The notes under the pieces are model-generated. The model did no database searches. It was not told where the DNA came from and worked only from the letters and a program-made list of their open reading frames with translations. The translations under genes were made by a program, and so were the position numbers. From an uncultured Acidobacteriota bacterium (GTDB lineage Bacteria > Acidobacteriota > Thermoanaerobaculia > Multivoradales > UBA5704), in contig CAWCIU010000018.1 of the NCBI GenBank assembly GCA_963795735.1, positions 1,602,262 through 1,666,261 on the forward strand: 64,000 nt of DNA, in the 5' to 3' direction. Shown here one piece after another: positions 3,294-63,435 of this stretch; position 1 is the stretch's first letter, and every line of letters begins with the position of its first letter.

Positions 3294-3548
3294 ATAGTCT
3301 CACTTTAAAGGAATAAGGCCTCCAGATTTATCCGCATTCTATTCCCGAAGTAATGAGCGTTCTTTCGAACTTCCCAGTCCGACGTATAATAGTGGACACC
3401 CCGATCACACCCCAAGAGGGGAAGAATAGAAATAAGGATGAGAGACATCCATGTCCTACTAAGACGTCCCAAAAGCCATCTCACTTGGCCACGAAATCGT
3501 GACGATGGTGCCCTTCTTCAGATTCCGGCAGATGAGACGGCGGCCATG

Positions 3549-4013: not shown

Positions 4014-4094
4014 CAAGGCTGTGGTGCTAGGTGAACCTTCGACAGGATTATGATTCTTGTTATAAGTCGTTATGGGGGTGGCACCACTCACCTG

Positions 4095-4517: not shown

Positions 4518-4530
4518 GGGCGACTCCTTC

Positions 4531-5493: not shown

Positions 5494-5600
5494 TTTTACC
5501 GCAATCCGAGGCTTTTCAGCTGCCTGTTAGATCCTTTCGTCTATGGCCTGTACCTTATCACCTCTTGTTGTCCGGCTCTCACACCTTAACGTTCTCTGCA

Positions 5601-5993
5601 CTACCCTCTATCGCGAACCTTCACCGATTTAGACGCCTCATCCCAGTACAATCGATCGTGATTGACAGAGTACCATGCTTGTACCTTCTTAAAATCAACT
5701 GCGGTTTCTCTATTGGCCAGCCAGCCGAAGAAACTTCCATTGCCCCTAATTTCAATACCAGTTGTTTTTTCAAAAAACTTACACGCCCGACCGAATTCCT
5801 CGACAGAATAGCCTCGACCATTAAGAGCATTGGTCACGATTTTTTCGTTCTTGCGCCAGATTTCGTCAACGTTTACTGCGGGAGTTCTCTCATGCTGGAG
5901 AGAAGGATCCGAACGATTATTGGCTTTATCGCAACCGGGCAGCAAGAACAATCCGCCAACCAAGGTAACCTTAAAAAAACAACTAATTCTCAT
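5601..5993 (-). CDS. Lipoprotein (about 130 aa), the predicted cognate immunity protein of the Rhs toxin.
   Basis: This is the internal start MRISCFFKVTLVGGLFLLPGCDK of track ORF 5601-6029, with a lipobox. Its ATG overlaps the Rhs TGA stop (ATGA), indicating translational coupling. It is paralogous to the 4095-4517 product. Confidence 0.6.
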   Translation of the reverse strand: MRISCFFKVTLVGGLFLLPGCDKANNRSDPSLQHERTPAVNVDEIWRKNEKIVTNALNGRGYSVEEFGRACKFFEKTTGIEIRGNGSFFGWLANRETAVDFKKVQAWYSVNHDRLYWDEASKSVKVRDRG

Positions 5994-8900
5994 TGGCGAA
6001 GCACTCCCGTCAAGTTTCCGTTCTGCCAAAACGTGATCACTACGATCGTATGACCGCCTTGCTCCTGTCGCGTTACAATGACTCCATTCAAGGGTCCACT
6101 TGGCGGCAAACCATTGTGGGAAGCTCCTCGATGATAGCCGGAAACTGCACTTTGAGCCGCATTTCCATAGCTATGTGCCCTGTCAAAGTCACTCCTGGTA
6201 TTAGCCAAGTGATTAAATTGCTTGAAGCTCTGCTCTGCCACCTCATGAGCTAACACAGATTGGCTACTCAATCCTGGACCTGGATTTATAGCAGTAAGAT
6301 CCTTGACATCGAGTTTGCCAGATCTATATTCGCCAAATAAGACTCCCCTATCGCCATCAACAAGCTGGATCCCAACCGTGCGCGTGTCGTTGATAGCGTG
6401 TTCCAAAACGGACTTAAGCGCAGCTTGCGCCGGAGTAGCAGCACCACCCTCTCCAGTCGTCTGCAGAGTGGCCTTACCCGAGGCATCGATCACAAGCCTG
6501 ACGCCATGGAGTCCAGAATTTGCAATGCTTTCTAGCTGACGATATTCGGCCTCTGTACCCGTAAAAACAAGCACTTGGCCAGTGGGGTCAACAGAATTCA
6601 GCGAACGATTTTGTACATACGAGTAGCGGTTGATAGATTGTGGAGACTTCGAATCGAAACTCTCTTTTGCTGTGTCCACACTCAAAAACCGCCCCGTCAC
6701 TGGGCTCTCATGCCGAGCATGCATGTAATCCAGATCGTCCCCCGCCCCTGCCGGGCTGGCAAGATCTCTCTCATGCCCGGTGAACTTCATCCGCTCGGTG
6801 TCCTGGTTGAAGGCGGTGGCTTCTTCTCCGAAGGGGTAATAGACGTGATAGGCGACGCGGTCTCCCGAGCCCCGGGTGATCAGGCGCGGGGTTCCCAGGT
6901 GGTCGAGGTGGAAGTGGCGCTGGCCGGTCTGCGTCTCGGCGGCGAGGAGAAGGCCGTCGCGGTAGAGGTAGTCCGTGCCTACGCTCCAGGTGCCGGCGTT
7001 GTTCAGGTAGTCCCGGAGAACCTTGCCGCCGAGATCCCGCACGGTCCAGTGGGAGAGGTTCCGCGCCGTGTCGTAGGACCAGATCCGCTCGTCATCAGCG
7101 GTGTAGAGATAGGCCCAGTTCTCGGCGCCGGAGACCATCTGGGTCATCTGGTTGAAATGGTCGTAGGTGTAGGACGCGCCGTTCCAGTTGGTCAGGTTGC
7201 CCGCGGCGTCGTAGACCGCGGCTCCGCTCAGGCGGTTCGTCTGCGAGCTGGTGGGCGTCGCGCGACCGCTGGTGCCGCCGATGCTCTGGAGGTTGCCGAA
7301 GGCGTCGAAGGCGTAGCTCTGCTGTTTCTGGTTGCCCGCTCCCGTAGGACCGTCGAAGAGGGTGGACGAGACCAGGCGGCTCACCGCGTCGTAGGTGAAC
7401 CAGGAGGTGCCGATCGCCTTGACGTTGCCCGCACCGTCGTAGGAATAGCTGCCCGAGTTCCAGCTCGCCCAGGGACCCGAGGCGGCGAGCGAGGAGGGGC
7501 GGCGCATCTCGTTCGGATCGTTGCCCTGGGTTTCGGTCACGCCGTTGCCGTGCGCGATCTGGCTCACCAGCAGGTTCGGATAATAAGCGATCGTCCCGTA
7601 GGTCGTCGCGCCGCTGGCGACGCCGGTCAGCAATCCTTGCGTGTAGGCGAGTTGGACGCTGCGCGCGGTATTCGGATCGGTGGCGACCGGGATGTCGAAG
7701 GTCCGGGCGAGATAGCCCGCCATCTGCGCCCGGGTGAGCGGATTTCCAGGACAGAAGTTCCCGCCGCCGCAACCGGTCATGATTCCCCGCCGCGAGACCT
7801 CGGCGATCTGCGCCGCGTCCCAGTAGGCGCAGTTGACGTCCAGGAAAGGTCCGGCGCCGGTGCAGGCCGGCGGCACGTAGCTCGTGCCCTCCTTGCTGCG
7901 CAGCAGGAAGGCCGCCATCTCCGCGTTGATCACCTGGTTGTCCGGGCAATAGCGCAGCGGGTTGGCGGCGCAGCCGGTGGTGATCCCCCGCCGGTAGATC
8001 TCTTCGATCCAGGCCGCGGCCCATTGAGTGCAGGGCACGTCGGCGAAAATGGGCGCCTGGCAGTTCGGCGCCGGCGGCGTGTAGCCGGGAGCGGAGGATG
8101 CGCGGATCAGAAACGCCGCCATTTCGGACCGAGTAATCGTGTTGTCCGGGCAGAAGCGCAACGGATTGGTGTTGCAGCCGGTAGTGACTCCAGCCGCGTA
8201 GATACCCTCGATCTCGCGCTGCGCCCAGTAGCCGACCGGCGCGTCCGCGAAGACGGCCGGCGCCGGCTGGGTGCAGCCCGCGTGGGTGCAGCGCGGGTAA
8301 TCCAGATTGCTCACCAATCCCAGGTCGTTATAGGTGAAGCCTTGAGTGAACGACTCCCCCGGCACGGTATCGGTCGTCGCCTGCGTGTCACGTTGGGAAA
8401 CCCGGCCGTCCCGGCCACCATAGGTGTAAGTCTCGGTGATCTGAACGGTGTGCGCTGCTCCGCTGAGCGCCACGTAGTTGTAGCGGCTCGCCTGCCGCAG
8501 CTTGCCCTGGCTCCAGTCGTTGGAGCCGTTGGCGCTGGCGTAGGTGAACGCCTTGAGGAGCCGGCTGGAGCCGCCTGTCTCCTGGACCTGGAAGAGCCGC
8601 TCGGCCGGGTCATAGCTGAACGTCAGATCGTTCGGACCATCGACTTTCCGCAGAGCGTGCCCGTGAGAATCGTAGCGCGGATAGCTCACCGCTCCATTCC
8701 CGGACGCTCCCTTCTCCGGATGGGTCTCCGACTGGAGCAGGCCCGCCCGGTCGTAGCTGAAGTTGCGCGTCTGGGTAACGGAAGCGGCGGTCGTCGAGAC
8801 GGAGGCGAGCCGGTTGCCCACGTCGTAGCCGTAGAAGGTGGTCACGTTCGCCCCGCCACTGCCGGAGGGCTCGGCGACCGAGGCGAGCCGGCCGTGGCGG

Positions 8901-12216: not shown

Positions 12217-12507
12217 GGCATCGCCTCACCAAGTCGGACGGCAGTTGTCCGCCATTCTATAGGAATGAACCCGTCTTACCTTCAGCTCGACAGAGTAGGA
12301 AGCGCCCCAGGTGTCTAAGAGCGTCGCTAAGTCGCGATCCAGGGCGCCATCCTGGAAACGGCTTTCAGGGCGCTTCCTGAGCCGCCGCCTCGCTCTATAA
12401 CGATTCGGCACCTCGCCGGGGCGGCACCTCTTCCCCGGGCAGCGCGCTCCCGGGCGAGCTCCGGGCGGCCGCTCGACGCCAGGCACACCGCTTTTCGGAG
12501 TCTCTGT

Positions 12508-12936
12508 TCAAACCACCACAAGGTGCTCTGGAGTAGCTCCTGGGGCTGCCGACAGCGGGATGGAGTGATCGAAGGCGACGAGCCTTCCCCGATGCTCCAC
12601 GGCAAGCGCCAGAAGATAGACGTCGGTCACCTGGCGCGGCCCGTGGACATGGCTGGAGTTGATTCGGCGGTCATCGAGAAAGCTGGTGGAACAGGGCCAG
12701 AATTCGTGGTGCTCGGTGCTGGTCGCCCGGCGCAGCCGCTCGACAGCCTCGAAAGGCGAAACGGGACTTGGGTACTTGGGCTGGCTGATAATGCGGACGA
12801 ACCCGTTTTGAGTCAGAGCGCAGGATGCCCAGCCATGCTGGATTTCCCCTGAGATCCACTCTTGGGCTCGTCGATGGTCGACGTGATCGGCATCCAGCAG
12901 CGCGAGGAGCACGCTGATGTCGAGGAGCGCTCGCAT
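12508..12936 (-). CDS. vapC: Type II toxin VapC (PIN-domain ribonuclease).
   Basis: MRALLDISVLLALLDADHVDHRRAQEW... is a PIN N-terminal motif. The protein is 142 aa. Its ATG overlaps the stop of the upstream antitoxin gene (ATGA). Confidence 0.8.
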   Translation of the reverse strand: MRALLDISVLLALLDADHVDHRRAQEWISGEIQHGWASCALTQNGFVRIISQPKYPSPVSPFEAVERLRRATSTEHHEFWPCSTSFLDDRRINSSHVHGPRQVTDVYLLALAVEHRGRLVAFDHSIPLSAAPGATPEHLVVV

Positions 12937-13181
12937 CAGTCCAAGTCTTCTTCCCGCAGCTTGTTGATGAGCTCATTGGAGATCGCGCCACCACGGGGGG
13001 GCAACGGTTCGAAGCCAAAGAAGCTCTTCGGCTTCTCGACCTTGGGATCCTCCTTGTACCGATGGGTCAGCGCCTCCCGAGCGAGCTCAGACAGGAGATC
13101 TCCGGCGCTGCGCTTCTGCCGCCGCGCCCTCTCCTTGACCGCCAGCAGAACATCCTCCGCGATATCGAGCGTGGTGCGCAT
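12936..13181 (-). CDS. vapB: Type II antitoxin VapB (81 aa).
   Basis: MRTTLDIAEDVLLAVKERARRQKRSAGDLLSELAREAL is a typical VapB N-terminus. It lies directly upstream of vapC and overlaps it. Confidence 0.7.
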   Translation of the reverse strand: MRTTLDIAEDVLLAVKERARRQKRSAGDLLSELAREALTHRYKEDPKVEKPKSFFGFEPLPPRGGAISNELINKLREEDLD

Positions 13182-13439
13182 GCATCAGATGCTAGCACAG
13201 CCGGGTAGAGTTACTATGGCGAGAAGCACCTGCACCTCGTCCTGGGGTACTCCGGGCGCCGGAGCCCTCTCCGAGTCGGTCGGGAACGGCGCACCCTGCG
13301 GGGAAACAACCGTCGTGGGGAACGTCTCTCCCTGGAAGGGGAATCGCGTTTCCGGCGGACGGCTCACCCAGTACCGGGGGGATAGTCCCAGCGAATCATC
13401 TGGCACCTCGCCCGGGGGGCTCCAATTTTATCCGGAACC

Positions 13440-14171
13440 TCAGCCGTCTGCTGCAGGGGTCTCGTTAGCCGCTTCTAGGTCGCTCACGAGGCCATAGCCC
13501 CACTGCCTCCCCACCAACTCATGCTCGGCACGGCATTTCTCGCATGTGAACCGTGTGCCGATCTTAAGCTTCCGGTTCTCTAACAGAGTTTCATGTTCAC
13601 ACTTCATGCAACGGAAGTTAGAAGCGATTAGGCGAAATAAAATCTTACCCTCTTCGCTTTCAATGGCATAAAATTCTGCACCGCAAGACGGATTCAGATA
13701 CACAGCCTTATGACTCTTCTGTACTCCCTCTAGGTTCGCCGCTACGGGTTCGCCACACACGGAACATTGAAACTCAACCAAGCTTGCGAGTGAGCTATCA
13801 ATGCGACTCGCTACCACAGGTTCTAATTCCGCTACAACGCTATCAAGGTACTTCCGAAGTTCCTTTGGATCTCGTTGAAGCGGCGAAGACTCGGCCGGAG
13901 GCGACAGTACGTGAAGAAGGTTCCCAATTTTATTGTAACGCTTCCGAAGCCAAGACACCTTGAGACCTTTATGGTTACCTAAGCTCATCCACTTTCCCGT
14001 AGGTACTCCTGGCTCGGATTCAAACGCCACCATCATCTGGAAGTCTTGATCTGCTCCAGGCTCAAGCTCAAGGAGGGCTTTAACCGCTTGCGGAGGCTGC
14101 CAGATGGCAAGAACGCCCTTAGGCAGTCGCTTAGCATAGGTCTCCAGTTTCTGGTAAGTTACCGCCTCCAT
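13440..14171 (-). CDS. Hypothetical protein with two C-terminal zinc-ribbon-like motifs; the first gene found at the 3' end of the low-GC cassette.
   Basis: Probable start MEAVTYQKLETYAKRLPKG. The motifs are CSVCG-x20-C(GAEF) and CMKCEH-x16-CEKC. No family was recognised. The gene is low-GC. Confidence 0.5.
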   Translation of the reverse strand: MEAVTYQKLETYAKRLPKGVLAIWQPPQAVKALLELEPGADQDFQMMVAFESEPGVPTGKWMSLGNHKGLKVSWLRKRYNKIGNLLHVLSPPAESSPLQRDPKELRKYLDSVVAELEPVVASRIDSSLASLVEFQCSVCGEPVAANLEGVQKSHKAVYLNPSCGAEFYAIESEEGKILFRLIASNFRCMKCEHETLLENRKLKIGTRFTCEKCRAEHELVGRQWGYGLVSDLEAANETPAADG

Positions 14172-14372
14172 GCAAAATCGAAGTTCTAGGCAGACATAGC
14201 GCAAGACGGAATCGCTCCTCTTTCTAGGAGTTCCTTTGCGCGCTTAAGGCAACTTCTCTTATCGAAGCTCATTCAGAAGTCTCTCCTCGAGCATCTACGG
14301 CAGCAACGTTCTAGGCCTCCGCTGCGGACTATAGGGTTGGGTGCGCCGCCACATTTGCGAGGACCAGGGATT

Positions 14373-15527
14373 TCAGCGGTCAACTCGGATCCATGCTATA
14401 GGATGTTCTGAATCGGCTGAAGCATATGCTCCCTTTTTGACTATCCGTTCAACTTTCCCACTGACTGGCGCTTGTATATTGCATCCCTTCCGTAAGTTCT
14501 CCAGGAAAGCAAGCCACTGCTCCAATACACTACCGGAGAATGATCTTTCCTCTTTTCTACGATTCCAATCCGCTACTGCCAGAAGTTTTCTTTCTTTGGC
14601 GATCTTGGCCTCAGTTTCAGCCTCTTCAACAGAATCTGGAGGTACTACTCCTGCCTCCTTGAGCCTCTGATATCGGGATAAATGCTGATCGGCTCGCAAA
14701 GCCTGCAAACTCTCCACTGACTTCGCGCTCTCCGGGCTAACATCGCTTGCTCCTGGAACTTGCAAATGACGCAACTCGCCACGGGTCCTCAGAATCTCAC
14801 GATCCAGTGCCTCGCAATCCTGCTGTACAATAACCTGTCCTTGCTTGATCTGAGCGCCCTGTTTCCATGTCTCTAAAACCGTACCCCCATAGCGTGCAAA
14901 GACAGGGTACAAATCGTTACTAAGTGGGGGATAGGGAGGATTTGGAGGAGTCGGAGTAGTAATGGATGTTGATTCTGAACGGGCAACCCAGAGGACTTGG
15001 AGTCGGTCGAGAGAATTGTTCACCTGCTCCCAGCGTCGAATTTCATCCTTGCTGACACGAGTCAATGAGACCAAGGACGTACTTACCGAGAACACAGCAC
15101 CAGCGAGAAGACCCGCCCCGACAATCGGCGCGAACAGCCTAACTGCGAATTCCACTGGCGCGCCAGATCCTTTTGAGTGCTCAAGTGTGCCAAAAATCTT
15201 CTCTGCTACATTTTCAAAAAATTTTCGCTCTGGGTCTAGACCACCCAGAACATTCGTGATTACAAAGGCTAATCCCCAGACGAAGCCAATCATAATGAGG
15301 ACAGCCATACTAAAATGGGCAACGTTATAGAGGATTGCAAAGGGACCATCATCTCCGGCGAGAACTCCAAGCAGATACCTGCGAAGGCCCTGCGAGCGAG
15401 CAACTTCTTTATCCATACCTCTCGCCCATTGATGATACACCTCGAAAAAAAGGAGCCCGAAGCAGCCAACAACAACGAGGGTGATCGAACCACGCAAGCT
15501 GGACCAAAACATAGATGACTTCATCAT
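14373..15527 (-). CDS. Membrane protein with 3-4 N-terminal TM segments plus a coiled coil and a split lipoyl-like (HlyD/membrane-fusion-like) domain.
   Basis: TM segments are ITLVVVGCFGLLFFEVY, FSMAVLIMIGFVWGLAFVITNVLGG and LFAPIVGAGLLAGAVFSVSTSLVSL. The C-terminal half has YGGTVLETWKQGAQIKQGQVIVQQD, then a coiled coil, then IQAPVSGKVERIVKKGAYASADSEHPIAWI. This is the barrel-sandwich hybrid signature of HlyD-type adaptors. The gene is low-GC. Confidence 0.5.
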   Translation of the reverse strand: MMKSSMFWSSLRGSITLVVVGCFGLLFFEVYHQWARGMDKEVARSQGLRRYLLGVLAGDDGPFAILYNVAHFSMAVLIMIGFVWGLAFVITNVLGGLDPERKFFENVAEKIFGTLEHSKGSGAPVEFAVRLFAPIVGAGLLAGAVFSVSTSLVSLTRVSKDEIRRWEQVNNSLDRLQVLWVARSESTSITTPTPPNPPYPPLSNDLYPVFARYGGTVLETWKQGAQIKQGQVIVQQDCEALDREILRTRGELRHLQVPGASDVSPESAKSVESLQALRADQHLSRYQRLKEAGVVPPDSVEEAETEAKIAKERKLLAVADWNRRKEERSFSGSVLEQWLAFLENLRKGCNIQAPVSGKVERIVKKGAYASADSEHPIAWIRVDR

Positions 15528-15747
15528 CTTCTCCTTGAATTACTCCTGGACAAGTGCATAAGTAAGAAGTTGAAAGATAAAGCCGAAAAATTTGACCTGC
15601 CCAACGGGAGTGTGGCTGAGTGGCGGCGCCAGCCGTCCGCTCGAGCCTCCGGCCGCACTGGTTCTCCATGCATGCGATTGAAGCGCGATAAATGATTGTC
15701 GTCTTGATGCGAGTCCATTTCAATGGTTGCCCATGCGCAGCATATCA

Positions 15748-16344
15748 CTACTTACCAATAATCATCTTCACTATCATCGCCACGAACGAGATGCAATACG
15801 TGAAAGTGTTTAAATAATTTGGCCGCTCAGGAGTAAGCTTCAAACGTATCCATTCGGCAAGACGTAGAGGTGAGAGAGCTAATGCCATCCCGATTAGAAA
15901 TAGAAGGACCACAAGATACCCAAGCAACACGATGGGCCAAATAATGAAAAGAAGGAAAGCATCGCGAGAGCGAAAATCCTGCTCGAACCAATTGAATGGC
16001 CATGGCGGAAGGCGATGCGGGAAATCTTCTCTCCACCAGCGGCAAAATTTTCTGCCAACGCGCTGGGTCGGCAAGTATTGCAGTCTAAGCAGCGGCACAA
16101 TAAAAACGAGGCTAAGGAGGGTACCTGCTTCTCCAAGAGCGCGCAAGAAAAGGGATAATGATAGAAACATTACGATCAAACTTGTAAAAGTTAGGGTGAT
16201 TAACGCCAATACCTTCGAAGCCTTCCAAGTGGCCGCCCCTACTCTCAATAGCCATTCTTCTATTTTTCGGGCACGCTTCTCCCCTATAATCGTACTGATT
16301 CCGAAGATGGGGCCCAGCGTAAGGAGAACGTCCAGGATAGCCAT
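15748..16344 (-). CDS. Polytopic membrane protein (198 aa, about 5 TM segments) of unknown function; the first gene of the low-GC cassette in transcription order.
   Basis: The track gives MAILDVLLTLGPIFGISTIIGEKRARKIEEWLL…, followed by four more hydrophobic helices. An AT-rich putative promoter region lies at 16345-16500. Confidence 0.5.
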   Translation of the reverse strand: MAILDVLLTLGPIFGISTIIGEKRARKIEEWLLRVGAATWKASKVLALITLTFTSLIVMFLSLSLFLRALGEAGTLLSLVFIVPLLRLQYLPTQRVGRKFCRWWREDFPHRLPPWPFNWFEQDFRSRDAFLLFIIWPIVLLGYLVVLLFLIGMALALSPLRLAEWIRLKLTPERPNYLNTFTYCISFVAMIVKMIIGK

Positions 16345-16519
16345 AATTCTATGCTAGAACGTTGCTGGCCAACCTAGCTTATCCGCTTCGTCCCACGCTG
16401 CCTTACCAATATCCTGCATCTACCTGGCCGGGAAAGTCATAACGGATAGCTATGAGTCGATCTCATTCTAATTATAGACTTAGCTTTATCGTAAACCACT
16501 CCATCCTCTGCGTCAATAC

Positions 16520-16790
16520 GCCTCCGGTTGTCGTATAAGCGGCCGATCGACTCGCCGAGGCAGCTGCTGCTTATCCGACAACCTGCAATGAGGCCTCTCG
16601 AGGGAAGGGCGCTTAAATTGTCGTGTAAGCGTCTCCCGTCGAGGGCTGGTGGTGCTTATGCGCAGGCCGTCCGTCGGCATGGATTCTTGCGACGAACGGC
16701 GGGGGCTTGGAAGTCTCACGACTGCAAGAATTGGGGCGTGGAGCGGAGAGATCTCCCGGTTGCTTATGCGACAGAGAGTCGTCGGATCGG
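16520..16790. repeat. Array of five copies of the 12-mer TGTCG(T/C)(A/G)TAAGC in alternating orientation, forming two inverted-repeat pairs.
   Basis: Copies read tgtcgtataagc (about 16529), gcttatccgaca (about 16567), tgtcgtgtaagc (about 16622), gcttatgcgca (about 16654) and gcttatgcgaca (about 16762). The first pair extends to a 15-bp inverted repeat, GGTTGTCGtATAAGC…GCTTATcCGACAACC. No coding potential is present. Confidence 0.5.
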
Positions 16791-17139
16791 CGTCAGACGG
16801 AGTCGACAGGGCTTGGACGCCCCGGCATCCTCGGTGCCCGTATCCCAACGTAACCAAAAACCCTCCGTAACACGCCGCCCCTCAGCGGGAGGCCCCCTCC
16901 TCCCACCCGGCGGCCTGCGGTCGGCGGGTGCCTGGTCCTTCGATTGTCAATGAGCTCTCGCGACGGGCCGTTGCCGGCTCTCGCGGCTTCGCCCAGGACG
17001 GATGCGTCCGGGGCGAAGCTCCCTGTCCTTCCGATCCCCCTTGAAGGATCAGGAATACTTCTGTAATGTGCATATAGTTGACGATCTAGAACGGCGTGTC
17101 AAGCCCTGAGGGTGAAGAAAGGGCGCGACGCGCTCGCCT

Positions 17140-17480
17140 TCCCCAGGGGGAAGATCGCTCGATCGACGGGGAATGGCCCGTTCCCCAGAGTCCTTGAGGC
17201 GTTCCCCGCGGGGAATACCTCCCGAAGCGGAATGCGCATGGCTAAAGCTGGCTTGAAGATCCCGTTCCCCGGCTTTCCGGCTGCATTCCCTAGGCGGAAC
17301 GGCCCGTTCCCCGGGCGGAGCGGGAGCCGGCGGGCGGGGAATGGGGCGCGGCGCTGCCGATGCGGCCCTTTCCCCGGAGATCGCGGCGTGTTCCCCGCGG
17401 AAAATGCCTTTCGCGGGACAGGGAACGCGATGCGTTGGACAGGGAACGGCCCGCGGCGGGCAGGGAATGCCGCCCGCGGG
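17140..17480. repeat. Cluster of about 9 GC-rich palindromes built on TTCCCC/GGGGAA half-sites, for example ggggaatggcccgttcccc and the perfect palindrome ttccccgcggggaa.
   Basis: Copies lie at about 17146 (cttccccagggggaag), 17168, 17200, 17262, 17294 (ggcggaacggcccgttccccgg), 17355, 17389 and 17410-17470 (gacagggaacg x2, cccgcggcggg/cccgcccgcggg). Track ORF 17112-17501 over this region is low-complexity (GNGPFP repeats) and not credible as coding. Confidence 0.45.
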
Positions 17481-17654
17481 CCGGGTTGCAGGGTTCATTG
17501 ACAACTGACACACACGGGCAGGGGGTGATGCGGGGCGTCCCCTGCCGTTGCCATGCCGCGCGGCCTTTCGATCGGCCGGACGCGCCGCGCGGCGTCTTTT
17601 CCCGGCCGTCCCGAGATCCGAGATCCACGATGGGGCCCGGCCGGTCTTCACCAC

Positions 17655-18085
17655 GCCGGCGAGGAAATCCCCCTTACGGCTTTCCCAGCAGATCCATCAA
17701 CACGGCCACCTCCGCCTCCACGCCGGTCGCGATCGTCGGGTCGCGGTCGGGGGCGAAGAGGCTGGAGTGGAGGGAGGGGGGGCTGCTTGCCGGCCGCCGC
17801 GAGCTCCTTGAGCTTCGCGGGATCGCCGGCGCCCAGGCTCCACTGGACCGCCGGGACTCCCGCCAGCCCGTACTCGCTGAAGTCCTCGGAGGCCATCTGC
17901 GACGGCACGTCGACGACGTTGCCGTCGCCGAAGGTCCGGCGCAGGGCCGCCGCGATCCGGGCGGTCAGCTTGGGGTCGTTGTAGGTCGCGGGGCAGCTCT
18001 CGATGACCGCGAAGGCCGGCTCCTTCGGCGCTCCCGCCGCCACCGCCTCGGCCCTGGCGATGCGCTCGATGGCGGCGGATGGCGG
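17655..18085 (-). pseudogene. Duplicated 3' fragment (C-terminal about 145 codons) of the M20 amidohydrolase gene at 20894-22192.
   Basis: About 97% nucleotide identity to 20868-21300. It encodes AAIERIARAEAVAAGAPKEPAFAVIESCPATYNDPKLTARIAAALRRTFGDGNVVDVPSQMASEDFSEYGLAG...AAAGKQPP. No 5' part is present. Confidence 0.7.
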
Positions 18086-18087
18086 CG

Positions 18088-18135
18088 AGTGCCAGCCGAT
18101 CCTCGAGACTCTCTGCTCCGGATCGGCTGGCACTT
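18088..18135. repeat. Palindromic element of about 45 bp (14-bp perfect arms, gtgccagccgatcc…ggatcggctggcac), with a second copy at 22320-22368.
   Basis: The sequence is agtgccagccgatcctcgagactctctgctccggatcggctggcac. The second copy differs by 1 nt. Both copies sit at the 5' side (minus-strand sense) of an M20 gene copy. Confidence 0.55.
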
Positions 18136-18198
18136 GGCACTTGGTGCTGCCTGGAACTGCGCCGGCACCTCGAGCTCGGGGATCTGGGGTAGACTGCT

Positions 18199-19296
18199 GT
18201 GGTTTCATGGAAGGTCCTTACCGTAGTGCTCTCTAACCCCCAGCGCCTTGCCCTGGCAACGAAGCTCTCCCACCTGCGCCAGCCGGTGGCGGAGGCGGTG
18301 ACGGAGCAGTTCTTCCAGCGCCATCCGGACTGGGGGGACCGCTACGGCCCGCGGGGGCGCGAGCGGGGGATCGAGGACGCCCGCTACCACCTCGACTTCC
18401 TCGGCGGCGCCCTGACCGCGGGAGAGCCCCAGGCGTTCGCGGACTACGTGCGCTGGGCGCGGCGAGTGCTCGCGGCGCGCGGCCTCGAGTCCCGCTTCCT
18501 GCGCGAGAACCTGGAGCAGATCGCCGGCGCTCTCGCCGCCCGGCTCGACAGCGACTCGAGGCCCGCCATCGAGGAATTGATGGAGGCCGGCCTCGCGGCT
18601 TGCGACGAGCCGGCCGGCGGCGCCCCCGCAGACGAGGCCGAGGAAGGGGCGCTGGCCGCGGAGCGGCGGCTCTACCTGCAGGCCGTCCTGCGCGGGCAGC
18701 GCGAAGCCGCCATGGGAATCGTGAGCGCGAGCCTCAAAGCCGGCCACCCGGTGCTGGACCTCTATCTCAAGATCCTGCAGCCCGTCCAATACGAGATCGG
18801 CCGCCTCTGGGAGCGCAACGCGATCTCCGTGGCCGAGGAGCACATGGCCACCGCCATCACGCAGTCGGTCATGGCGCGCCTCTACCCCCTGGTGCCCCAG
18901 GAGCGGCAATCCTGCCGCGGCCGGATGGTCCTCACCGGCGTCGAGGGCGAGATGCACCAGGTGGGCGCCAACATGGTCGCCGACGTGGTGGAGATCCACG
19001 GCTGGGAGGTCCGCTTCCTCGGCACCAACCTCCCCCAGGAGGGCATCCTGCGCGTCGTCGAGGAGCAGCGGCCGGACGTCGTGGGAGTCTCGGCGACGAT
19101 GCTGTTCAATCTTACGCGGGTGCGGAGCCTGATCGAGGCGGTCCACGCCCTGCCGATCCCGCGGCCCCGGGTCCTCGTCGGCGGCGCGGCGTTCCGGACG
19201 GCGGCCGGCGCCTGGAAGGAGGTCGGCGCGGACGCCTGCGCCCTCGACCTCGAGCAGGCGATCGAGCTCTTGTGCGGCGACGGCGTTGCCGCCTGA
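18199..19296 (+). CDS. Cobalamin (B12)-binding domain protein with an N-terminal helical domain; a putative B12-dependent sensor or regulator.
   Basis: The C-terminal B12-binding Rossmann motif is RMVLTGVEGEMHQVGANMVADVVEIHGWEVRFLGTNLPQEGILRVVEEQRPDVVGVSATMLFNL. The start may be a non-ATG codon. Confidence 0.7.
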   Translation: MVSWKVLTVVLSNPQRLALATKLSHLRQPVAEAVTEQFFQRHPDWGDRYGPRGRERGIEDARYHLDFLGGALTAGEPQAFADYVRWARRVLAARGLESRFLRENLEQIAGALAARLDSDSRPAIEELMEAGLAACDEPAGGAPADEAEEGALAAERRLYLQAVLRGQREAAMGIVSASLKAGHPVLDLYLKILQPVQYEIGRLWERNAISVAEEHMATAITQSVMARLYPLVPQERQSCRGRMVLTGVEGEMHQVGANMVADVVEIHGWEVRFLGTNLPQEGILRVVEEQRPDVVGVSATMLFNLTRVRSLIEAVHALPIPRPRVLVGGAAFRTAAGAWKEVGADACALDLEQAIELLCGDGVAA

Positions 19297-19311
19297 CCCG
19301 AAAGGAAGTGC

Positions 19312-20838
19312 ATGGTCCTCGCGCTCTCACGCTTTCGGGTCGTCAACGGTATGGAAGAGCAGGTCGCGGAGGCCTTCCTCAACCGCCCGCACCTGGTGGA
19401 GGAGGCCGCCGGCTTCCTCGGAATGGAGGTCTTCCGTGACCGCCGCGACTCCAAAGCCTTCTATCTGGCCACCCGCTGGAGTGACGAGAGGTGCTTCCGG
19501 GAGTGGCACCGCAGTGAGGCGCACCACAGATCGCACCTGGGGATCCCCGGCGGCCTGAAGCTCGATCCCTCCTTCACCGAGGTCCGGGAGCTCGAGCGGA
19601 TCGAGGAGCCGGGCGAGGCCTCCTTCGAGATCGCCGACGCCAGCTTGCTGTTCGGCCATTTTGTCGGCCAGACCTCCTGCACGCTGTTCCTGCGCTGCAC
19701 GACCGACGGCACCCTCCTGGCCTGCAATCCGGCGATGGCGGAGCTCTTCGGCACGCCCGCTCCAGCCCTTGTGGGCCAGCCGCTCTGGAGCCACCTGACC
19801 GATTCCAACGCGGAGCTCCTGCGGGCGCGCATCGCGACCGCGGCGCGCCGGCCGGGGGAGCGGTTCAGGCTCAACGTCTGCGACTCCGCGCACGCGCCTC
19901 ACACTCTCGAATGTCACCTGGACCTGCGTCCCGACGGCTTCTTGCTGATCGGCGAGCGGGACTATTCCGGAGCCGAGCGGCTGCAGAGCGAGCTGCTCGT
20001 GCTCAACCAGGAGCTGGCGGTGATGGCGCGCGAGCGCGGCCAGGCGCTGGCCCGGCTCCAGCGAGTCGAGCAGGAGCTCGAGCGGCTGCTCGCCAGCGAG
20101 CGGCTGGCGCGCGCCGAGGCGGAAAAAGCGAACCGCCGCAAGGACGAGATCCTGGCCATGGTCTCCCACGACCTGCGCGCGCCGCTCGGCGCGATCTCGG
20201 GCTGGGCCCAGCTCCTGGCCGCCGGCCAGCTCGGCGCCGAAGGCATCGCCCGCGCCATCGCCGCCATCCAGCGCAACGCCGGTCTCCAGGCGCAGTTGAT
20301 CGAAGACCTGCTGGACGTGGCCCGCGCCCAGGCCGGCACGCTGCGGTTCGCCCCCCGGCCGATGGATCCGGCGGCGGTGGTCGAGACCGTCCTCGAGATG
20401 GAAAGGCCCACCGCCACGGCGAAGGGGGTTTCGCTGGAGCACGCGGTGACGGGCGGCGCGGCGATCCTGGTGCTGGCCGATCCGGCGCGGCTGGGGCAAG
20501 CGCTCGGCAACCTGGTGGTCAACGCCGTCAACTTCACGCCGGCGGGGGGGCTCATCGAGGTGCGGCTCGAGCCGGAGGGAGACGCGCTGGCGATCCGTAT
20601 CCAGGACTCCGGAGTGGGGATCGACGCCGCGTTTCTCCCTCACATCTTCGACCGCTTCCGCCAGAGCCGGACGGAACCGGGCGTCAAGGAGTCCGGCCTG
20701 GGGCTGGGGCTCGCCATCGCCCGCGACCTGATCGAGCTCCAGGGCGGCACGATCGAGGCCACGAGCGGCGGCCCCGGCCAGGGGGCGACCTTCACGGTGA
20801 GGCTGCCCCGCCATCCCGTCCCGGCGTCGAGCGCGTGA
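19312..20838 (+). CDS. Sensor histidine kinase with an N-terminal ABM (antibiotic-biosynthesis-monooxygenase/IsdG-like) domain, then PAS, then HisKA, then HATPase_c.
   Basis: The ABM-like N-terminus is MVLALSRFRVVNGMEEQVAEAFLNRPHLVEEAAGFLGMEVFRDRRDSKAFYLATRWSDERCFREWHRSEAHH. The H-box is ILAMVSHDLRAPLGAISGWAQLL. The G-boxes include GLGLGLAIARDLIELQGGTIEA. The gene starts 16 nt after the B12-protein gene. Confidence 0.8.
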   Translation: MVLALSRFRVVNGMEEQVAEAFLNRPHLVEEAAGFLGMEVFRDRRDSKAFYLATRWSDERCFREWHRSEAHHRSHLGIPGGLKLDPSFTEVRELERIEEPGEASFEIADASLLFGHFVGQTSCTLFLRCTTDGTLLACNPAMAELFGTPAPALVGQPLWSHLTDSNAELLRARIATAARRPGERFRLNVCDSAHAPHTLECHLDLRPDGFLLIGERDYSGAERLQSELLVLNQELAVMARERGQALARLQRVEQELERLLASERLARAEAEKANRRKDEILAMVSHDLRAPLGAISGWAQLLAAGQLGAEGIARAIAAIQRNAGLQAQLIEDLLDVARAQAGTLRFAPRPMDPAAVVETVLEMERPTATAKGVSLEHAVTGGAAILVLADPARLGQALGNLVVNAVNFTPAGGLIEVRLEPEGDALAIRIQDSGVGIDAAFLPHIFDRFRQSRTEPGVKESGLGLGLAIARDLIELQGGTIEATSGGPGQGATFTVRLPRHPVPASSA

Positions 20839-20893
20839 TCTTCTACGCGTGATCTTCTAAGGGACTCCAAGGACGCCGGCGAGGAAATCTCCC

Positions 20894-22192
20894 TTACGGC
20901 TTTCCCAGCAGGTCCATCAACACGGCCACCTCCGCCTCCACGCCGGTCGCGATCGTCGGGTCGCGGTCGGGGGCGAAAAGGCTGGAGTGGAGGGAGGGGG
21001 GCTGCTTGCCGGCCGCCGCGAGCTCCTTGAGCTTCGCGGGATCGCCGGCGCCCAGGCTCCACTGGACCGCCGGGGCTCCCGCCAGCCCGTACTCGCTGAA
21101 GTCCTCGGAGGCCATCTGCGACGGCACGTCGACGACGTTGCCCTCCCCGAAGGTCCGGCGGAGGGCCGCCGCGATCCGGGCGGTCAGCTTGGGGTCGTTG
21201 TAGGTCGCGGGGCAGCTCTCGATGACCGCGAAGGCCGGCTCCTTGGGCGCTCCCGCCGCCGTCGCCTCGGCCCTGGCAATGCGCTCGATGGCGGCGAGGA
21301 TGTGCTTCCGGACCTCCTCCTTGTAGGCGCGGACGGTGATCTGCAGCTTCACCTCGTCGGGGATGATGTTGTGCTTGTTGCCGCCATGGATCGAGCCCAC
21401 GGTGACAACCGCCGGGTCCTGCGGGTCCTTCTCGCGGGCGATGATCGTCTGCAGCGCCAGGACCGTGCGGGCGGCGATCACGATGGGATCGACGGTCGTC
21501 TGCGGCGAGGCGCCGTGGCCCCCCTTGCCGTAGATCGTCAGGTCGACCGAGTCGGAAGTTCGCGAGGGCATAGCCCGAGGTGACGCCGAGCTGGCCGGCC
21601 GGCAGGTTCGGGCTATCGTGGAGGGCCACCACGAAATCGGGCTTGGGAAAACGGGTGAAGAGCCCGTCCTTGAGCATCGCCCGGGCGCCCCGGATCCTCT
21701 CCTCGGCGGGCTGGCCGATGAAGACGAGGGTGCCGTGCCAGTCGGCCTTGCGGCGCGCCATCTCGGCCGCCGTCCCCACCAGGGCCGTCATGTGGACGTC
21801 GTGCCCGCAGGCGTGCATCACCGGCACCTCGGCACCCGAGTCGTCCTTGACCCGCACCGTGCTGGCATAGGAAGGCCGGTCTTCTCCTCAACCGGCAGGG
21901 CGTCGAGCTCGGTCCGCAGCATCACGGTGGGGCCGGAGCCGTTCTTGAGCACCCCCACCACCCCGGTGCCGCCGACCCCGGTCGTCACCTCGAAGCCCGC
22001 CTGGCAGAGCCGGGCGGCGACCTTGGCGGCCGTCTTCTCCTCGTGCAGCGAAAGCTCCGGGTGTTGGTGGAGGTCGACGTAGAAATCCCGGAGATCCGGC
22101 GACAGGGCTTTGGGAGCCGGGGCCGCCGGCCCAGGTATGGCGCGGAGCAGGGAGAGGAGAGCGAGTGAAGCCACGACGGGGAAGCGAGGCAT
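20894..22192 (-). pseudogene. M20/M25/M40 family amidohydrolase (hippurate-hydrolase/aminoacylase-like) with a signal peptide, split over three frames by two single-nucleotide frameshifts.
   Basis: Frame a (21818-22192) reads MPRFPVVASLALLSLLRAIPG...LRTELDALPVEEKTGLP. Frame b then reads YASTVRVKDDSGAEVPVMHACGHDVHMTALVG...GYALANF. Frame c then reads DSVDLTIYGKGGHGASPQTTVDP... to the end. Junction 1, at about 21855, has one T missing from a TT run (ccttcct|atgcc instead of ccttccttatgcc). Junction 2, at about 21570, has an extra C in ttcc. Confidence 0.7.
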
Positions 22193-22475
22193 AGGGTCTC
22201 CGTGAAGAGGGAATCCTGCGGGTGAGCCTACCAGGAGCCTTCCCGGGCGTCCATGCAGGAGCCCTCGCGCCGGCCACCCGAGGCCTACGGCACCCTGTTG
22301 ACGGGTGACCGTGACGTCCGCGCCACGACGAGTGCCAGCCGATCCTCGAGACTCTCTGCTCCCGATCGGCTGGCACCTGGTGCCGCCGGTTAGTGCGTTG
22401 ATCGCAAGAGTCGGCGGTGTTCCTCTGACAGAGGTCCGGTTCTTTGACCCAGGGATTCTCTTTCCTCACCCACAG

Positions 22476-22730
22476 GTCACGTTCTCTGACCTCCAGGTCA
22501 CGTTCTCTGACCTCCAGGTCACGTTCTCTGACCTCCAGGTCACGTTCTCTGACCCACAGGTCACGCTCTCCGACCTCCAGGTCACGCTCTCTGACCCAAA
22601 GGTCACGCTCTCTGACCCACAGGTCACGCTCTCCGACCTCCAGGTCACGGTCTCTGACCTCCAGGTCACGCTCTCCGACCCACAGGTCACGCTCTTCGAC
22701 CCAACCGGCCCGAGACTCACCATGGTCCGC
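22476..22730. repeat. Tandem array of 12 copies of a 21-bp unit, ctccaggtcacg(t/c)tctctgac, with no spacers.
   Basis: Units differ by 1-3 nt (ccacag/ctccag/ccaaag; gttctct/gctctcc/ggtctct). Each unit junction forms the palindrome TGACCtccaGGTCA, so GGTCA/TGACC half-sites recur every 21 bp. In-frame translation gives QVTFSDL or SRSLTSR heptads, but no credible start or ribosome-binding site is present. Confidence 0.65.
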
Positions 22731-22818
22731 CGGTCATCACCAGGAGGGCGCGGCTCGCCGGTGGGACCTTGGCGCACCTTCCTCTTTGAACGCAGGTCTT
22801 TTCAAGGAGGTCGGCACG

Positions 22819-23046
22819 ATGAGATCACGTCGGATGTGGAGCCGGTTGGCGTTGCTGGGATGTCTCGGGGTGTCCGTCCTGCTGGGCTCCGGACACGGCA
22901 AGGCCGCCCTGGCCACGACCTGCCCGATGGGCGGTCCCTACTGCACCTCGGATCCGGTTTGCGTGACGTACTGTCAGGGAGTGACCGGCTTCACGGACGG
23001 GCACCACTGCATCGTCAGCACGCATTGCTGCCGCTGCGCCCTGTAG
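22819..23046 (+). CDS. Small secreted cysteine-rich peptide (75 aa; 9 Cys in a mature region of about 50 aa, C-terminal HCCRC).
   Basis: MRSRRMWSRLALLGCLGVSVLLGSGHGKAALATTCPMGGPYCTSDPVCVTYCQGVTGFTDGHHCIVSTHCCRCAL. An AGGAGG ribosome-binding site lies 8 nt upstream. This is an internal start of track ORF 22444-23046. Confidence 0.6.
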   Translation: MRSRRMWSRLALLGCLGVSVLLGSGHGKAALATTCPMGGPYCTSDPVCVTYCQGVTGFTDGHHCIVSTHCCRCAL

Positions 23047-23240: not shown

Positions 23241-23435
23241 ATGATCCGTAAGATCGTCCTTGGACTCGTGCTCACCGGCGCTCTGGCCGCCACCTCGTAC
23301 GCCGACAAGTGCGTCCCGAACCCGAACCCGATCTGCTATCAGATCTACGCGCCGGTCACCTGCAGCAACGGCGTGACCTACACCAACCAGTGCTACGCGA
23401 CCGCCGCCTGCGCGGTGGGCTGCCACCCCGCCTAG
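23241..23435 (+). CDS. Small secreted Kazal-like domain peptide (64 aa), a putative serine-protease inhibitor.
   Basis: [21 protein letters not shown] signal peptide, then [38 protein letters not shown]. This has six Cys in Kazal spacing (C-x7-C-x7-YAPVxC-x-NGVTYxNxC-x6-C-x3-C). A GAAAGGGGAA ribosome-binding-site region lies upstream. Confidence 0.6.
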
Positions 23436-23483
23436 CCCCTCCCCGAGTCCGGTCCCGCGAAGGCGCGGGGCCGGACCGGACCT

Positions 23484-26122
23484 TCAGCGCGCGTCCCGGG
23501 CCGCCGCGGTGAGCGCGGAGAGCACCCGCCGGTACTCCTCTTCGAGCGCCGCCAGGGGGACGGCGCAGGCTTCGACCTCGGTGTTGGGCGCCAGCCGCTC
23601 GAGCTCGCCACAGAGCATCGACAGGCCCATCGCCCCCAGCACCCCGCTGGTGCCCCGCAGCGCGTGCGCCCTCCGCCGGAGCAGCGGCCAGTCGCCGCGG
23701 GTGACCGCCGAGCGGATCTCGGTCACGTGCGCCTGCGCCTGGAACGTTTCCGCGATCTCGCCCAGCACGTCCCGCCCCACCGCCCGCCCCAGCGCCCGCA
23801 GCTCCGTGAGCCGGTCGCCGTCGAGCGGCGGCAGGGGCTCGGGCGGAGCGGCGAGGCCGTCCGGCACGGCCGCGAAGCACTCCGGCTCCGGGAGGCCGGC
23901 GCCGGCGTCCTCCAGCCAGCGCTCCAGCTTGCGCCGCAGGACCTCCTCCAGGAAGGGCTTGGTGACGTAGTCGTTCATGCCCACGGCGAGGCAGCGCTCC
24001 AGCTCCTCCCGCATGGCATGGGCGGTCAGCGCCACGATGGGGATCTGCCGGGTCTTCTCCGGACCTTCGCGGATGCGGCGCGAGGCCTCGTAGCCGTCGA
24101 GCTCCGGCATCTGGCAGTCCATCAGGACGAGGTCGAAGCCGCCGCTCTCCAGCGCCTCCAGGGCCTCCCGCCCGTTGTTGACGGCCACCACGTCGTAGCC
24201 CATCACCGTGAGCTGCTCGACGACGACGAGCTGATTGATCACGTTGTCCTCCGCCACCAGGATGCGCCGCCGCCGGCCTCCCGGCCGCGCGGCCGCCTCG
24301 CTCCCCGGCGGGCAGCCGTCCGGCGCCGAAGCGGCCTCGAGCTCGAGGACGAACCAGAAGGTCGAGCCCTCCCCGGGCCGGCTCTCGAAGCCGATCTCGC
24401 CGCCCATCCGCTCGACGATCCGCCGGCTGATCGCAAGCCCCAGCCCGGTGCCGCCGAAGCGCCGCGAGGTCGAGCTGTCGGCCTGGGAGAAGAGCCCGAA
24501 GAGCCGCCCCTGGGACTCCAGGGGAATGCCGATCCCGGTGTCGCGGACGGCGAACCGCAGCCGGCCGCCGGCGAGCCGCCGCGCCTCGACGTCGACCGTC
24601 CCGGCGGTGGTGAACTTCACCGCGTTGCCCACCAGGTTGGTGAGCACCTGGCGCAGGCGCCCGGGATCCCCCCAGGCCCACTCCGGCACCCCCTCGCCGA
24701 AGGTGAGGTTGAGCTCGGTGTCGTGGCTGCCGGCGGTGAACCGCAGCAGCTCGACGATCTCGCGCAGCGTGCCCGTCAGATCGAAGCACACCCGCTCGAG
24801 CACCAGCTCGCCGGCCTCGATCTTGGAGAAATCCAGAATGTCGTCGATCAGCCGCAGCAGCGAGGCCGCCGAGCTTCTGGATCAGCTCGGCGTAGTCGTT
24901 CTGCTGCGCCGACAGACCCGTCTTGCGCAGCAGCCCGATCAGGCCCAGGACCCCTGCCATCGGCGTCCGGATCTCGTGGCTCATGTTGGCCAGGAACCGC
25001 CCCTTGGCCTGGTCGGCCTGCTCGGCCGCCTCCTTGGCCAGCCGCAGCTCCTCGGTCCGGCGGCGCTCCGTGACGTCCCGGTTGATGCTGAGGATCGCCG
25101 GCCGGCCCTCGTATTCGATGAACGAAGCGTTGATCTCGAGGAACATCCGGCTGCCGTCCTTGCGGAGCTGGGTCGACTCGAAGTTGTAGAAGACCCCCCG
25201 CTCCATGGTCTCGGCGACCTGCTGGCGGCCGCGCTCGACGTTCTCGGAGATGTCCTCCAGCGACAGGCCGATGAACTCTTCGCGGCTCATGCCGTAGATC
25301 TCGCAGGCCCGGCGGTTGACGTTGAGGACGATCTCCCGCTCGGGCGAGAAGATGAGGATGGGATCGTGAGCGCTCTCGAAGATCCGGCGGTAGTCGAGGC
25401 TCGCCTTGCGCAGCTCCTCGGCGCGCTGGTCGGCCCGCCGCTCGAGCTCGTCGCGGTCCTGGCGGAGCTTCTGCTTGAGCGGCCTCCAGCTCCGCGGTCC
25501 GGACGGCGAGCTGGTGGGACCGCAGGAGCCCTGTCCAGCGGTCGCGGTAAAGCTGGCCGCCCAGCAGGAGGAGATAGAGGAAGAAGGTGGCCAGGCAGAG
25601 GTACTCCCAGCGCCCCAGGTGCCACCGGGTCGAGCCGAAGACGCCGGCGAGGGAGAGGAGCACCGGCAGGACCAGCAGGGCGACGAAGGCGCAGACGACG
25701 CGGGGCGCGTGGGGATAGAGGATGACGCTCAGGCTCGCGGCCACCGCGACGAGGATGAGGACGAAGAACGATTGGATGCCGGGGCCGAGGCTCGTCAACA
25801 CGGCGCCGGCCAGCCCACCGAGAAGCAGGCCCTTCAGGACGACCGCGGAGTAAAAGGCGATCCGCCACCGCCGGGGGCTGGCCTGGAAGAGCGGCTCGAA
25901 CCGCTGGATCAGATAGACGCGCAGGGCGGCGAGAGCGAGGACGGCGATCGCGGAGACGTCGAAAAACAGAGGGGCCCGCTTCGGCAGGTCCGCCGTCAGC
26001 CCGAGGACCAGCAGCGCGAACGGATAGCTCAGCGCCCCCGCGAGGGAGCGCCGGGCGGACAGCCGATCCGCGGCTTCCCTGACCGCGGGCGGAATCGGAC
26101 GCGGACTCTCCGATCGTGACAA
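23484..26122 (-). pseudogene. Hybrid sensor histidine kinase (N-terminal 5-6 TM sensor, PAS, HisKA, HATPase_c, REC, Hpt) interrupted by two single-nucleotide frameshifts.
   Basis: Track ORF 24848-26122 carries the membrane domain. ORF 23356-25290 carries PAS and the HisKA start ([23 protein letters not shown]). ORF 23484-24803 carries the rest (…[29 protein letters not shown]…[24 protein letters not shown]…[11 protein letters not shown]…[22 protein letters not shown]…Hpt). The frame junctions are at about 25465 (…AELEAAQ | [12 protein letters not shown]…) and about 24862 (…ELIQK | [11 protein letters not shown]…). Confidence 0.65.
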
Positions 26123-63422: not shown

Positions 63423-63435
63423 AAGGGAAAAAGGG

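Follow-up and report, generated by a model that had tools for sequence, protein, structure and literature searches.

We analysed a stretch of 64,000 nucleotides (the window; G+C content 66.6%) from an uncultured bacterium of the Acidobacteriota, and in particular an array of 21-bp tandem repeats that it harbours. The array sits in a 626-bp intergenic region between two divergent genes, one coding for an M20 peptidase (minus strand, start at 22192) and the other for a small secreted Cys-rich peptide (22819-23046). Two related contigs, L001 and L002, carry the same locus. The features of the region are as follows.

22467-22697, no strand: core array in palindrome-first register, with one near-perfect unit (CACCCACAGGTC...) followed by 10 perfect 21-bp units; each unit consists of a 12-bp GACC(T/C)-NN-AGGTC dyad and a 9-nt spacer, ACG(T/C/G)TCT(C/T)(T/C)
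22427-22466, no strand: two decayed leading units (GACAGAGGTCCGGTTCTTT, then GACCCAGGGATTCTCTTTCCT) from the register listing, orthologous in all three alleles of the locus according to a three-way alignment
22698-22705, no strand: terminal half-site GACCCAAC closing the array, conserved in L001
22706-22818, plus strand: proximal upstream segment of the peptide gene, outside the repeat family, containing the Shine-Dalgarno sequence AAGGAGG
22819-23046, plus strand: gene of the 75-aa secreted Cys-rich peptide, which has no Pfam match; the identical protein is encoded on three metagenome contigs
22386-22426, no strand: left limit of homology with L001 and L002 (blastn of the loci against the window; three-way alignment)
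22332-22344 and 22364-22376: 'pal element', a perfect 13-nt inverted repeat (GTGCCAGCCGATC / GATCGGCTGGCAC) with a 19-nt loop

Tandem Repeats Finder (TRF) reported a repeat of period 21 at 22473-22695 (10.6 copies, 90% matches, score 327), by far the highest-scoring tandem repeat of the 64 kb, together with a weaker 63-bp superperiod. Eleven clean units are found at 22473-22703, each with one to four mismatches relative to the consensus CAGGTCACGCTCTCTGACCTC. The 17-mer core GGTCACGCTCTCTGACC, allowing two mismatches at most, occurs 11 times where 0.36 occurrences are expected, and none of 100 shuffled sequences reached 11. By both measures, the repeat that the original prediction had placed here from the letters of the DNA exists and is far above chance. 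Its description needs some amendments: the 12 copies announced are 11 clean and two decayed units, they differ from the consensus by up to four rather than three nucleotides, and the final 27 bp of the proposed span (22704-22730) are not repeat. The array stops 115 bp before the ATG at 22819 and not about 90 bp.

A palindrome had been proposed at every junction between units. GACC-N4-GGTCA is indeed present at 10 of 10 junctions, but the full TGACC-N4-GGTCA at just seven, because some units read CGACC. In the palindrome-first register, the unit becomes the 12-bp dyad GACC(T/C)-NN-AGGTC plus a 9-nt spacer, and the variation between units is confined to the centre of the dyad and the spacer, with GACC and GGTC invariant. 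Since the 21-bp units follow one another strictly head to tail, successive dyads are two helical turns apart and share one face of the DNA. The proposal of a spacer-less, helically phased series of dyad-symmetric sites was thus upheld, and this architecture suits cooperative protein binding. We also agree that the array is not a clustered regularly interspaced short palindromic repeat (CRISPR) locus. It does combine a short palindromic repeat and a more variable segment at a fixed period, which repeat finders could mis-call. However, CRISPRs have 24-48-bp repeats and unique spacers of comparable length, whereas the repeat here is a 12-bp dyad, the 9-nt spacers are variants of one another, and there is neither a leader nor cas genes.

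The 64-kb window contains no second site of this palindrome type, not even as a singleton. The 21-mer has no other copy in the window either, and what recurs across genomes is the palindrome with its 21-bp phase, not the 21-mer. Rfam searches were negative for the array (E ≤ 1), for the window (gathering score) and for the arrays of 18 loci. A nuclear receptor-like reading of the GGTCA half-site was taken as a coincidence.

A search of one genome per species for triplets of GACC-N4-GGTC sites at 21-bp spacing yielded at least 111 loci. After removal of chance and coding hits from other phyla, the collection comprises at least 71 arrays in at least 19 metagenome-assembled genomes (MAGs) labelled Thermoanaerobaculia, Thermoanaerobaculaceae, Holophagales or Acidobacteriota. 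Among the matches listed, the arrays have a median of nine units and a maximum of 25. One MAG harbours at least 15 arrays, and a complete chromosome of 7.66 Mb at least five, each of 14-25 units. The canonical core is GACCC-NN-GGGTC; the GACCT/AGGTC variant of the window is also found at loci L036, L084 and L100. Among the matches listed, 439 of 445 spacings between consecutive sites, decayed units included, are multiples of 21, with a scan pattern that itself imposed the 21-bp period and intact dyads. Several genes of the window share 72-81% DNA identity with loci of Thermoanaerobaculia MAGs, above all with L082 from a Thermoanaerobaculaceae MAG. Look-ups of two other window proteins for exact matches returned no record, and the assignment of the organism is drawn solely from this similarity and from the distribution of the repeat family. 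No such array was found in the viral contigs of IMG/VR. Text searches of the literature for these palindromes and for repeats of Thermoanaerobaculia or Acidobacteria returned no description of these arrays, and the family appears to be previously undescribed.

Flanking inverted repeats, as in miniature inverted-repeat transposable elements, are generally absent. The single case is L089, where a perfect 34-nt inverted repeat and a 31-nt, 90% inverted repeat surround a split array (2184-2251 and 6650-6733). L080 is the sole array with a 42-bp superperiod, made of two alternating spacer types. Copies of the Acido-Lenti-1 RNA motif (RF01687) are found within ~1 kb of the arrays at two loci, L021 (4388-4434, minus strand, and 4543-4589, plus strand, an inverted pair ~110 bp apart) and L063 (7487-7532, minus strand); none is present in the window.

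The positions of the arrays relative to genes were determined with gene calls based on a heuristic using the G+C content of third codon positions (GC3). Among the matches listed, all arrays are intergenic, between high-GC3 open reading frames (ORFs), and the few ORFs that span an array are start-codon over-extensions. The 37 array sides that face a stop codon are at a median distance of 52 bp from it, 14 of them within 30 bp, and the 24 sides that face a start are at a median of 155 bp, two of them within 30 bp (Mann-Whitney p = 0.002). The 18 sites with classifiable orientation comprise seven convergent, seven tandem and four divergent ones. Given the preference for gene 3' ends and the small share of divergent sites, the placement of the window array on the promoter side of two divergent genes is a minority case. 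No shared function emerged from an analysis of neighbour-gene enrichment; the recurrent neighbours are limited to IS1-like transposon genes and a few orthologous loci. One neighbour family of ~175 aa, found at three loci, was dropped as a candidate, being devoid of Pfam matches and of obvious DNA-binding character. The orientation of the spacers shows no consistent polarity relative to the direction of transcription. The arrays are non-coding, dispersed over unrelated intergenic sites, and preferentially located just downstream of genes.

We next looked at which positions of the unit are conserved. Within 48 arrays totalling 492 in-register units, the divergence from the array consensus per site is 3.6% in the arms, 25% in the centre and 26% in the spacer. 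Loci L014 and L047, which belong to different species and have flanking proteins 89% identical, harbour arrays that are orthologous unit by unit. This comparison, less prone to ascertainment than the within-array contrast, gave divergences of 9.3% for the arms, 54% for the centre and 29% for the spacer (Fisher p = 5e-7). The half-sites are under purifying selection. Complementarity stops at the 5-bp arms; at positions +/-1 and +/-2 it is less frequent than expected by chance, while positions -3 and +3 show a preference for pyrimidine and purine, respectively (93-94%), with no covariation. Decayed units harbour single, uncompensated changes, and the dyad centres are often not self-complementary (AA, CC and GA occur). 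A manual tally of the sense-strand centres in arrays just after a stop codon gave four GT and five AC, hence no G-U wobble bias. With arms that are not extended, changes that are not compensated, free centres and no wobble bias, the constraint bears on the sequences of the two 5-bp half-sites and not on a stem. Covariation of an RNA stem was accordingly rejected.

In the alignment of the window with L001 and L002, orthology covers the two decayed units that lead the array, its last one or two units and the proximal ~115 bp. In between, the units have been replaced, with GACCTCCAGGTC-ACGCTCTCT in the window, GACCCACGGGTC-GCGTTTCTT in L001 and GACCCGCGGGTC-CAGTGGCTT in L002. The dyad and the 21-bp phase survive in all three alleles. 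Variation in repeat number, anticipated in the original prediction, was found, as the locus has ~13 units in the window, ~9 in L001 and ~15 in L002, with different spacers. The arrays vary quickly in unit number and spacer between strains. A metagenome scan with a conserved proximal 20-mer retrieved a fourth, more diverged allele, L116 (its other matches were L117, which is the L002 contig, and one unrelated chance match). At the equivalent upstream position (829-1139), L116 harbours 7.5 copies of a 42-bp (20+22) repeat, in which a palindrome of 13 bp (CGGAGC-C-GCTCCG) is accompanied by a decayed G(T/A)CCCGGTC. This array has the appearance of a derivative from which the canonical dyad was lost.

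To the left, the ~10 kb of window positions 12266-22385 have no counterpart in L001, a 92%-identical contig, and the breakpoint is ~40 bp left of the array, which therefore lies at a synteny breakpoint. As judged from their comparison, the two contigs differ by an indel or a rearrangement, and the array marks its edge. L001 joins window position 12265 almost directly to the array region; the missing ~10 kb include the genes of the B12-binding protein, a PAS histidine kinase and the M20 peptidase. The 22332-22376 inverted repeat lies in a stretch of the intergenic region that is present in the window but in neither L001 nor L002.

The peptide gene has its own signal peptide and a strong Shine-Dalgarno sequence, AAGGAGG, at 22804-22810. 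The ~90 bp that precede its start (22730-22818; ...GGCGCACCTTC.TCTTTGAACGCAGGTCTTT..AAGGAGG) are conserved at all homologous loci, with or without an array, and L001, L002, L116, L118 and L119 keep this segment whatever stands farther upstream. It is probably the real promoter or a 5' untranslated region (UTR) element of the peptide gene. No sigma-70-like promoter was detected in the array, adjoining it or in the conserved ~90-bp segment. Upstream of the peptide homologues at 77-84% identity (L118-L126), there is no array but a real 205-aa gene or unrelated low-G+C DNA, and the proximal ~90 bp are kept. The proposal of a regulatory array dedicated to the Cys-rich peptide gene is contradicted both by these homologues and by the family itself, which occupies at least 71 unrelated sites between genes in the MAGs, mostly near gene 3' ends. 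The window array is not tied to the peptide gene.

The genes within ~4 kb of the array code for the M20 peptidase, histidine kinases, a B12-binding protein and small secreted peptides. No cas, par (ParA/ParR), rep or TetR gene lies beside the array, and none of the adjoining genes codes for a regulator obviously linked to it. The M20 peptidase gene (20640-22192, minus strand) is broken over three reading frames, with the domain sequence continuing in another frame, and the gene of a hybrid histidine kinase (23356-26122, minus strand) is likewise broken over three frames. These are either pseudogenes or indel errors typical of long-read assembly. Just 3' of the peptide gene, a second small secreted Cys-rich protein of 64 aa (23241-23435, plus strand) has a weak match to Kazal-type inhibitors (PF00050, E = 0.004, below the cutoff). 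Near the right end of the window, five 9-bp AGGGAC(N3) repeats (63432-63474) are followed ~45 bp further by four inverted copies (GTCCCTT..., 63521-63554), next to a gene at 63568-63942 (minus strand). A similar series of 9-bp GTCCYT repeats is found in L069 near 5290-5350, and these series may represent another interspersed repeat family.

A protein of ~330 aa recurs near the arrays at seven loci. This protein harbours the IS1/IS1595 zinc domain, and its match to NF033558, the model of IS1-family transposases (E = 6e-20), stays below the curated cutoff. The elements have two types of ends, ...TTAGGACAC(C/G)ACC or ...GATTTTCAAAAAGGCCCAGTAC. At L040, a complete element of 6 kb (1713-7786) is flanked on the left by ...GGACCCTCGG and on the right by ACCCTCGGGTC..., with an 8-bp duplication, ACCCTCGG; one palindrome, GACCCTCGGGTC, is thereby restored. 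The 8-bp target-site duplication ACCCNNGG falls inside the palindrome in a fixed register. At L089, an element of 4 kb (2507-6569) splits the array, with identical units on either side. All 14 element ends, in seven MAGs, abut the palindrome in one register and read outward ACCCNNGGGTC or CCNNGGGTC, as the rule predicts. An IS1-family transposon uses precisely this palindrome as its insertion target. Ends are also found at L013, L035, L038, L069, L075, L090, L092 and L106. The IS1-related elements measure 4-6 kb and carry passenger genes, including a recurrent one for a ~150-aa protein without family match.

We compared the arrays with known repeat systems. The centromeres of partition systems and iterons (parC of R1 and pSK41, sopC of F, RK2 and R6K) consist of phased sites of ~20-22 bp that are bound cooperatively into a nucleoprotein filament. 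The 21-bp phase and the dyads, as putative binding sites, fit them by architecture; however, such centromeres and iterons occur once or twice per replicon beside par or rep genes, whereas there are many arrays per genome with unrelated neighbours. The variable-number tandem repeats (VNTRs) of mycobacteria called mycobacterial interspersed repetitive units (MIRUs) are similarly intergenic, present at tens of loci per genome and variable in copy number between strains. Nevertheless, MIRUs are 40-100 bp long, lack a conserved dyad and are regarded as translationally coupled mini-ORFs. The operator of Thermus thermophilus SbtR, a homodimer of the TetR family, is TGACCCNNKGGTCA (PMC4948773), with a dyad almost identical to the GACC(C)-NN-(G)GGTC found here. 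SbtR operators are single, located in the promoters of a small regulon in another phylum, and do not form tandem arrays. By analogy with SbtR, a dimeric regulator reading such a dyad would be feasible.

The closest likeness is with the repetitive extragenic palindromes (REPs) and bacterial interspersed mosaic elements (BIMEs), represented in our comparison by those of E. coli and Pseudomonas and by Thauera GTAG-1. Like the arrays, they are short G+C-rich palindromes restricted to intergenic regions, with many copies per genome, often grouped in regular clusters and near gene 3' ends, and a copy number that varies between strains. REPs are also insertion sequence (IS) targets, of IS1397, ISKpn1, IS621 and ISPpu9, as the arrays are for the IS1-family element; PMC1525189 describes REPs as specific targets of insertion sequences. 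Nevertheless, a REP unit is an imperfect palindrome of 20-40 bp that forms a stem-loop, with stems of usually 6-9 bp, and carries a conserved GTAG or CGTC tag at one end (PMC3733652). In contrast, the dyad of the arrays is perfect and only 12 bp long, with 5-bp arms and a 2-nt centre, below the size of such stem-loops, and GTAG/CTAC or CGTC/GACG adjoins it in at most 2.5% each of 556 units. According to PMC2817692, clustered REPs alternate in orientation with linkers between them, whereas the units here are strictly head to tail at 21 bp, up to 25 in a row, with one spacer polarity and no alternation. What is conserved in the arms is their sequence, not their pairing. Thus, the family works most like REPs and BIMEs but lacks three of their defining features that we tested, namely stem-loop size, tag and alternating orientation.

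The array of the window is a non-coding member of an interspersed family. Our best explanation, about which our confidence is evenly divided, is that this family extends across the lineage and that its dyads are read by a putative factor, forming a block at gene boundaries. Each unit presents two 5-bp half-sites, GACCC and GGGTC (GACCT and AGGTC in the window), on either side of an unconstrained 2-bp centre, and then a 9-bp spacer that drifts freely. A putative sequence-specific and probably dimeric factor would recognise each dyad as duplex DNA, and such factors would load side by side along the array, aligned on one face of the helix. The resulting nucleoprotein block would act at gene boundaries as a roadblock, insulator or organiser, rather than as an operator of the peptide gene; in the window, the position of the array between divergent genes, 115 bp upstream of that gene, would be coincidental. 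A broader proposal, tentative and somewhat doubtful, is that Thermoanaerobaculia keep genome-wide phased dyad arrays by selection, that a putative protein coats them as boundary- or insulator-like blocks, and that the IS1-family transposon has evolved to use them as a safe landing pad.

Several observations weigh against the reading of the dyads by a protein. The spacers are polar and the flanks anti-symmetric, which a purely symmetric protein site does not predict. The centres of the half-sites are 7 bp apart, unusually close for a classic helix-turn-helix dimer. Both half-sites have changed together in the GACCT...AGGTC variant (window, L036 and L084), as base pairing would predict. The within-array divergence is partly biased because the arrays were detected through intact palindromes, and the constant 21-bp period is partly imposed by the pattern used for the search. 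Finally, the preference for gene 3' ends (52 versus 155 bp, p = 0.002; seven of 18 sites convergent) fits a REP-like role at the RNA level equally well.

Such a role, in RNA or single-stranded DNA, is the main rival, although we deem it unlikely. Upon transcription or unwinding, neighbouring units would pair (12-nt self-complementary blocks, 9-nt loops) into a string of hairpins that protect or terminate mRNA 3' ends in both directions, and a Y1 transposase akin to REP-associated tyrosine transposases (RAYTs) would recognise the hairpin and thereby spread and homogenise the family. In addition to the concerted change of the half-sites and to the sites favoured by the arrays, just after stop codons and in convergent regions as for REPs, this model is consistent with intergenic, multi-copy elements serving as IS targets, as described for REPs (PMC3733652, PMC1525189 and PMC2817692). 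The array also folds better than shuffled sequence (z = -4.96 for the minus strand and -1.9 for the plus strand), and the alternating spacers of L080 would suit a hairpin-plus-linker unit. However, 5-bp arms around a 2-nt centre with complementarity below chance beyond them, decayed units without compensatory changes and the lack of G-U bias in our manual tally do not point to a stem, and AA, CC or GA centres would create mismatches in stems between units. The sequence of the arms is constant over at least 19 MAGs, where structure alone would permit any palindrome, and neither the tag nor the alternating orientation of REPs is present. The unit-by-unit persistence of orthologous arrays in different species is evidence against a recent spread by copy and paste, and no RAYT gene was seen in the sampled 8-kb flanks, although no systematic search was made.

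The other rivals are less probable than this. A gene-specific cis-regulatory or contingency repeat would bind a regulator, or shift promoter geometry through its copy number, to control the peptide gene or the divergent M20 peptidase gene. It is compatible with the strain-to-strain difference in copy number, and the window, L001, L002 and L116 keep an array of 21- or 42-bp period ~100-190 bp upstream of the ATG despite the turnover of unit sequences; because these four alleles retain some array, we leave this possibility a small probability. The dispersal of the family over unrelated sites, the homologues without array that keep the proximal segment probably holding the promoter or 5' UTR, and the lack of both a sigma-70-like promoter in or adjoining the array and an obviously linked regulator gene beside it make it improbable. 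A selectively neutral VNTR or selfish slippage product, in which the palindrome is kept merely as the units are recent copies, has a slimmer chance still. The interior of the array does turn over fast between strains, and the L116 allele has lost the canonical dyad. Nevertheless, spacers and centres diverge ~7-fold more than arms within units, and 3- to 6-fold more between orthologous arrays, and identical half-sites are found in all those MAGs. Copying cannot spare 10 of 21 positions, which disfavours neutral slippage. Lastly, we regard it as extremely improbable that the repeat is coding, be it for an SR-rich leader fused to the peptide, as the original prediction had envisaged for a larger precursor, or for a protein of 7-residue repeats on either strand. 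The period is divisible by three, three to four of the six frames are open over the window array, and a 200-aa ORF with a TTG start (22444-23046) crosses it in frame with the peptide. However, of the three metagenome contigs that encode the identical 75-aa peptide, L002 and L003 have this frame closed by a stop 30 nt before the ATG, and frame-breaking units of 20, 22 and 23 bp plus stops in several frames occur in the arrays of L001 and L002, which refutes the leader. Across the family, no frame survives the occasional site spacings of 20, 37, 38 and 41 bp. The peptide is equipped with a Shine-Dalgarno sequence and a signal peptide of its own, the ORFs of the repeats have neither Pfam matches nor homologues, and conservation bears on 10 specific nucleotides, would-be synonymous sites included.

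To our knowledge, REP/BIME-type repeats have been studied almost solely in Proteobacteria, and their origin and function are still debated. The arrays represent a structurally distinct analogue of them in an abundant, essentially uncultured soil lineage, with a clean evolutionary signal of ten constrained nucleotides in a drifting 21-bp unit. The targeting of the dyad by an IS1-family element parallels that of REPs by IS elements, as reported in PMC1525189. The register-exact insertion gives experimental handles, namely a defined 12-bp site for pull-down and a defined transposition target. In practical terms, the arrays break short-read assemblies, mark synteny breakpoints and can be mis-called as CRISPRs or as ORFs, as our gene caller did by placing ORFs over some of them. 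If the reading of the dyads by a protein is correct, the family would add a new class to the interspersed repeats of bacteria, with half-sites read by a protein, rather than hairpins, as its defining feature.

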